NCBI RefSeq assembly: GCF_044647545.1
Contig: NZ_CP172818.1
Source: Escherichia coli
GTDB taxonomy: Bacteria > Pseudomonadota > Gammaproteobacteria > Enterobacterales > Enterobacteriaceae
Length of the DNA: 64,000 bases
Reading direction: 5' to 3' (one strand)
The notes under the pieces were generated by a model. That model was not told the DNA's origin and searched no databases. It saw only the letters and a program-made list of their open reading frames with translations. The translations under genes and the position numbers were made by a program. Shown piece by piece: positions 9,611-9,642 of the stretch (position 1 is its first letter; each line of letters begins with the position of its first letter).

Positions 9611-9642
9611 CTTGACCTTCCCGTAAGGGGAAGGACTATGCT
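9611..9642 (+). promoter_or_regulatory. cueO promoter with CueR (MerR-family) operator: dyad ccttcccgtaaggggaagg between -35 cttgac and -10
   Basis: Perfect 7-bp-arm dyad at 9616..9634 placed within a long spacer typical of MerR-type promoters, about 50 nt upstream of cueO start. Confidence 0.7.

Follow-up and report, generated by a model that had tools for sequence, protein, structure and literature searches.

A predicted CueR-dependent promoter with a 19-bp spacer upstream of cueO in an Escherichia coli chromosome

CueR, a Cu(I) sensor of the MerR family, activates copA and cueO on exposure to copper (PMC5329002; PMC9909328), and a PcueO-lacZ reporter has served as a CueR-regulated gene (PMC9396075). 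The core binding sequence of CueR is CCTTCC-N7-GGAAGG, and the protein bends a promoter with a 19-bp spacer, realigning its -35 and -10 elements; shifts of the box by 1 bp have been designed to weaken the contact between CueR and sigma or to cause a steric clash (PMC8169799). The cueO promoter is named among the chromosomal CueR operator sites (PMC4507017). In 2006 the yacC-yacK divergon, yacK being the old name of cueO, was described as holding a candidate CueR site in a promoter with a 19-nt spacer, a site also present in Salmonella and Yersinia (PMC1526738). For E. coli K-12, binding of CueR and cueR-dependent induction by Cu(I) are attributed to Outten et al. 2000 and to Yamamoto and Ishihama 2005, which we cite here through the accounts given in PMC5329002 and PMC8169799. 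A literature search for the literal string CCTTCCCGTAAGGGGAAGG returned no paper. The CueR operator of the cueO promoter is already known, having been in the literature since 2000–2006, and is not novel.

The DNA analysed here (the window) is a stretch of 64 kb from an E. coli chromosome. The site of interest lies between the divergent genes yacC and cueO, and the remainder of the window corresponds to the well-known aceF-lpdA-acnB-speDE-yacC-cueO-gcd-hpt-can...fhuACDB-hemL-clcA region. The 401 nt about the site (9400–9800) match several RefSeq E. coli chromosomes at 100% identity, and in these yacC (minus strand) and cueO (plus strand) are annotated. As a whole, the window is 99.88% identical (BLAST) to strain FDAARGOS_497, which is close but a different strain. 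That alignment breaks at around 20243–20330 into overlapping segments, implying an indel or repeat difference of about 200–280 bp close to rpnC and to a small hypothetical gene, and small indels are also seen elsewhere in the window, for example 1 nt near 440–460. Two Rfam matches score above the gathering threshold, both expected for the region: the t44 sRNA at 62086–62172 (+; 83.5 bits) and the HtrA 5′ UTR thermometer at 53204–53249 (+; 77 bits). The coordinates of the features around the site are collected in Table 1.

Table 1. Features of the yacC-cueO region, in window coordinates.
Feature	Position	Strand	Remarks
yacC, divergent neighbour, pilotin-like lipoprotein	9175..9522	-	NCBIfam NF037975, 196.8 bits; RefSeq annotation
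-35 hexamer TTGACC, cueO promoter	9612..9617	+	5/6 matches to TTGACA; same hexamer in K-12 PcopA
CueR operator dyad CCTTCC-N7-GGAAGG	9616..9634		symmetry centre 9625; matches published CueR core box
Spacer between -35 and -10, 19 bp	9618..9636	+	kept in 79/80 orthologous loci
-10 hexamer TATGCT	9637..9642	+	4/6 matches to TATAAT
Expected cueO transcription start	9649..9652	+	about 7–10 nt past -10; predicted from promoter geometry only
Shine-Dalgarno AAGGA	9676..9680	+	7 nt before cueO ATG
cueO CDS, 516-aa multicopper oxidase, Tat-type MQRRDFLK N-terminus	9688..11238	+	NF008205; RefSeq annotation of identical DNA

The open reading frame that begins 46 nt downstream of the -10 hexamer encodes CueO, a copper-homeostasis protein: its product scores 981.6 bits against the NCBIfam CueO equivalog NF008205 (cut-off 525), in agreement with the RefSeq annotation and with the gene named in the original prediction. 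An AAGGA or AAGGG motif precedes the ATG in almost all of the orthologue upstream sequences printed. The cueO Shine-Dalgarno sequence and start codon are flanked by a perfect 7-nt inverted repeat, TTAAGAA/TTCTTAA (9668–9674 and 9703–9709), which may be due to chance. On the yacC side, a block at 9577–9598 (CGACGAnCnTTATT) can be recognised in the majority of the orthologous intergenic regions; it is A/T-rich on the minus strand and could be the divergent yacC promoter.

Read directly, the 32 nt at 9611–9642 are CTTGACCTTCCCGTAAGGGGAAGGACTATGCT; with the surrounding bases of the window they read tctgcgaCTTGACCTTCCCGTAAGGGGAAGGACTATGCTcaacg. The original prediction, made from the letters alone, was that a CueR-type dyad is readable in the cueO promoter, and this was borne out. 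The arms, CCTTCCC (9616–9622) and GGGAAGG (9628–9634), are perfect over 7 nt each and stand 5 nt apart, and they contain an exact copy of the CueR core box. A search of both strands of the 64 kb finds the exact box once; 100 dinucleotide-preserving shuffles of the window never contain it. With up to 2 mismatches allowed, four matches are found in the window against 2.0 expected, and the degenerate matches at 10703, 39110 and 54681, with 2 mismatches each, were rejected as chance occurrences.

Two details of the predicted layout needed adjustment. A -35 element is present as claimed, but its hexamer is TTGACC and not the CTTGAC first proposed. The dyad was said to lie between the -35 and the -10; it does take up most of the spacer, but its first two bases are the final two bases of TTGACC, a 2-bp overlap with the -35 hexamer. 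The long spacer of the prediction is present. When spacers of 15–21 bp were scored from TTGACC, a TAnnnT hexamer was obtained at 19 bp only, and the pattern TTGACC-N19-TANNNT has a single occurrence in the window, at 9612–9642. The optimal spacer for sigma-70 is 2 bp shorter than this. The two recognisable hexamers are therefore not spaced 16–18 bp apart as in a canonical sigma-70 promoter, and a standard promoter scan at that spacing over 9100–10000 called no promoter, as expected of a promoter of the MerR type.

Across 9611–9642 the sequence is identical to the K-12 cueO (yacK) promoter, which has the same downstream gene and the same divergent neighbour. Over the full 165-nt yacC-cueO intergenic region there is one difference from K-12 MG1655: position 9610 is A in the window and G in K-12. 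This base lies immediately 5′ of CTTGAC, just outside the 32-mer, and a functional consequence is neither known nor expected.

The check suggested alongside the prediction was a comparison with the copA dyad. Neither cueR nor copA lies within the 64-kb window, and the comparison was made with PcopA of K-12 (CTTGACCTTCCCCTTGCTGGAAGGTTTAACCT), the CueR target whose complexes have been solved by crystallography and cryo-EM (PMC8169799). The cueO promoter and PcopA have in common the -35 hexamer, the two half-sites, the spacer of 19 bp and the register of the box, and both start with CTTGACCTTCCC; in both promoters the box begins at base 5 of the -35 hexamer. By hand count, the two agree at 23 of the 32 positions. 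They differ only in the operator centre (GTAAGGG in the cueO promoter, CTTGCTG in copA), the two bases ahead of the -10, and the -10 itself (TATGCT in the cueO promoter, TAACCT in copA). The perfect symmetry of the two operators also extends in different directions from the shared half-sites, inward in cueO (CCTTCCC/GGGAAGG) and outward in copA (ACCTTCC/GGAAGGT).

The site is a core feature of E. coli. The 35-mer at 9611–9645 was found at no less than 99% identity in 5412 of 5426 complete E. coli genomes, and the corresponding copA 35-mer, at the same identity, in 5405 of them. The cueR gene was found in 5424 of the 5426 (5422 with at least 80% query coverage), and because it is carried so widely, the source strain very probably has it as well. 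Among plasmid-labelled E. coli records, there were 10 matching places for the yacC-cueO segment 9400–9800 and 3 for the 35-mer; these may represent large chromosome-derived plasmids or assembly labels.

To look beyond the species, we used a single CueO protein scan of species-representative genomes, which yielded 80 loci from Enterobacteriaceae with 74–98% protein identity. In 79 of these, TTGACN-N19-TANNNT is present no more than 140 nt upstream of the cueO start codon, with invariant spacer length, and 77 of the 79 carry a relaxed CueR box inside the promoter. The sole exception, Intestinirhabdus alba, has no box in its whole 4.5-kb locus; at 1150–1500 of that locus, upstream of cueO, a G+C-rich stretch contains a long inverted repeat (CAGGCTGTGTCCCTTAACCG ... 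CGGTTAAGGGACACAGCCT) and may be an inserted repeat element. Among the 75 distinct sequences, the core columns that were not forced by the search pattern hold a mean of 1.52 bits of information, compared with 0.38 bits for the 10 nt directly upstream of the core and 0.64 bits for columns 35–54, the 20 nt that start 3 nt after the -10. Dyad columns reach up to 2 bits, while columns 0–5 served as the alignment anchor and are trivially invariant. The flanks were compared ungapped, so that indels exaggerate the divergence of distant flanks; this has little effect on the 10 nt adjoining the core, where conservation is nevertheless poor. The promoter and its box are conserved upstream of orthologous genes, with diverging flanks.

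Within the conserved core, the elements vary to different extents. Among 48 distinct orthologous 32-mers, the -35 is TTGACC in 46 and the -10 is TATGCT or TAAGCT in 45, and the left half-site together with the -35 (CTTGACCTTCC) is nearly invariant. The right half-site, in contrast, reads GGAGGG instead of GGAAGG (window position 9632) in 33 of the 48. The central G residues (window positions 9623 and 9627–9629) are 95–99% conserved across the family, whereas the centre of the copA operator differs. Complementary bases occupy column pair 7/21 in just 14 of the 48 distinct sequences, which makes the perfectly symmetric E. coli version a minority form. No convincing signal of symmetric half-site covariation across species was obtained from the 48 sequences; at column pair 9/19, symmetric changes (C:G to G:C or A:T) were few and were outnumbered by asymmetric ones.

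The G-rich centre and the GGAGGG right half-site of most genera could set an affinity for CueR, or an induction threshold, that differs between the oxidase and the pump. It is conceivable, though we consider it unlikely, that cueO operators form a tuned subclass of CueR sites in this way, and that the site might also influence the divergent yacC promoter, since the cueO -35 lies just 90 nt from the yacC start codon.

Taken together, positions 9611–9642 can be assigned with high confidence as a CueR-dependent cueO promoter. Our own observations cover the architecture, the identity with K-12, the shared register with PcopA, the conservation and which gene lies downstream; that CueR binds, that copper induces and that activation works by DNA distortion is taken from the K-12 literature.

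Of the alternatives, the one that fares best is that the operator serves a different or additional regulator of the MerR family, such as ZntR, SoxR or an acquired paralogue resembling GolS or HmrR, in which case the metal specificity could differ from copper. The long-spacer architecture is indeed common to MerR-type promoters, and CueR, HmrR and the gold-sensor paralogues of Salmonella are closely related, with almost identical signals (PMC1526738). Against this, the half-sites are exactly those of the CueR box and of PcopA, and no paralogue was seen in the window. ZntR and SoxR operators have half-sites unlike those of CueR, which also counts against a different regulator. A second alternative is that the operator is intact but its regulation has been lost in the source strain through a missing or defective cueR. 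The gene lies outside the window and went undetected in 2 of the 5426 genomes, which leaves some room for such a loss, but the operator has not decayed in comparison with K-12. Because the site matches the CueR box exactly and almost all E. coli genomes carry cueR, both alternatives are improbable: the first is very unlikely, and the second more so, to the point of being negligible.

An inverted repeat of this kind might instead work by folding into a nucleic-acid hairpin (a terminator or an RNA element) and not as a protein operator. As a single strand the sequence does fold, into a 7-bp stem closed by a loop of 5 nt, at -7.4 kcal/mol (z = -3.55 relative to shuffled sequences). We considered a Rho-independent terminator and rejected it, as the stem is followed by no T-run on either strand and a terminator scan made no call. 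The dyad is also located upstream of the predicted cueO start, between divergent genes, and should thus fall within no known transcript. As described above, the arms are often not complementary in orthologues, the right arm usually being GGAGGG, which argues for recognition of two half-sites by a protein and against a base-paired stem. We therefore give the hairpin hardly any credence. Finally, although short palindromes are common, with several further inverted repeats of 6–7 nt within 9450–9750 and mismatched boxes at chance level in the window, a functionless intergenic palindrome arising by chance is effectively refuted by the shuffles, by the conservation of the box and its fixed spacing to the -35 and -10 in 79 of 80 species against a background of drifting neighbouring bases, and by its identity to the published CueR box in register with PcopA.

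If the CueR-dependent promoter operates as its K-12 counterpart does, a CueR homodimer would occupy CCTTCC-N7-GGAAGG. With a spacer 2 bp too long, the -35 and -10 would be out of distance and out of phase for sigma-70, resulting in low basal transcription, and apo-CueR would hold the promoter in a repressed state. CueR loaded with Cu(I), Ag(I) or Au(I) would be expected to kink and undertwist the centre of the dyad (around 9625), a distortion that would shorten and re-phase the spacer and restore the geometry of one of 17 bp. RNA polymerase could then open the promoter and transcribe cueO, which encodes the periplasmic Cu(I) oxidase. The original prediction of a distortion-type promoter of the MerR family agrees with the K-12 identity and the PcopA register, and with published work on CueR (PMC5329002; PMC9909328; PMC8169799). 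We infer that cueO in the source strain depends on copper and CueR as in K-12. The strain carries the standard, intact CueR-type cueO promoter, from which a copper-inducible Cu(I) oxidase is to be expected as in K-12; the value of the assignment lies in correct annotation only, and it opens no new question.

Set among known systems, the cueO promoter shares its plan with the long-spacer promoters of the MerR type (mer, zntA, soxS and bmr), in which the dyad lies within a spacer of 19–20 bp and activation occurs by DNA distortion and not by recruitment (PMC9909328). It differs from MerR-type promoters in general in its half-site sequence, which is specific to copper sensors of the CueR/HmrR type. 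The cueO/cuiD promoters of other Enterobacteriaceae, for example Salmonella, have the same -35, 19-bp spacer, left half-site and position upstream of the oxidase gene (PMC1526738), but in most of them the right half-site is the imperfect GGAGGG and the -10 reads TAAGCT.
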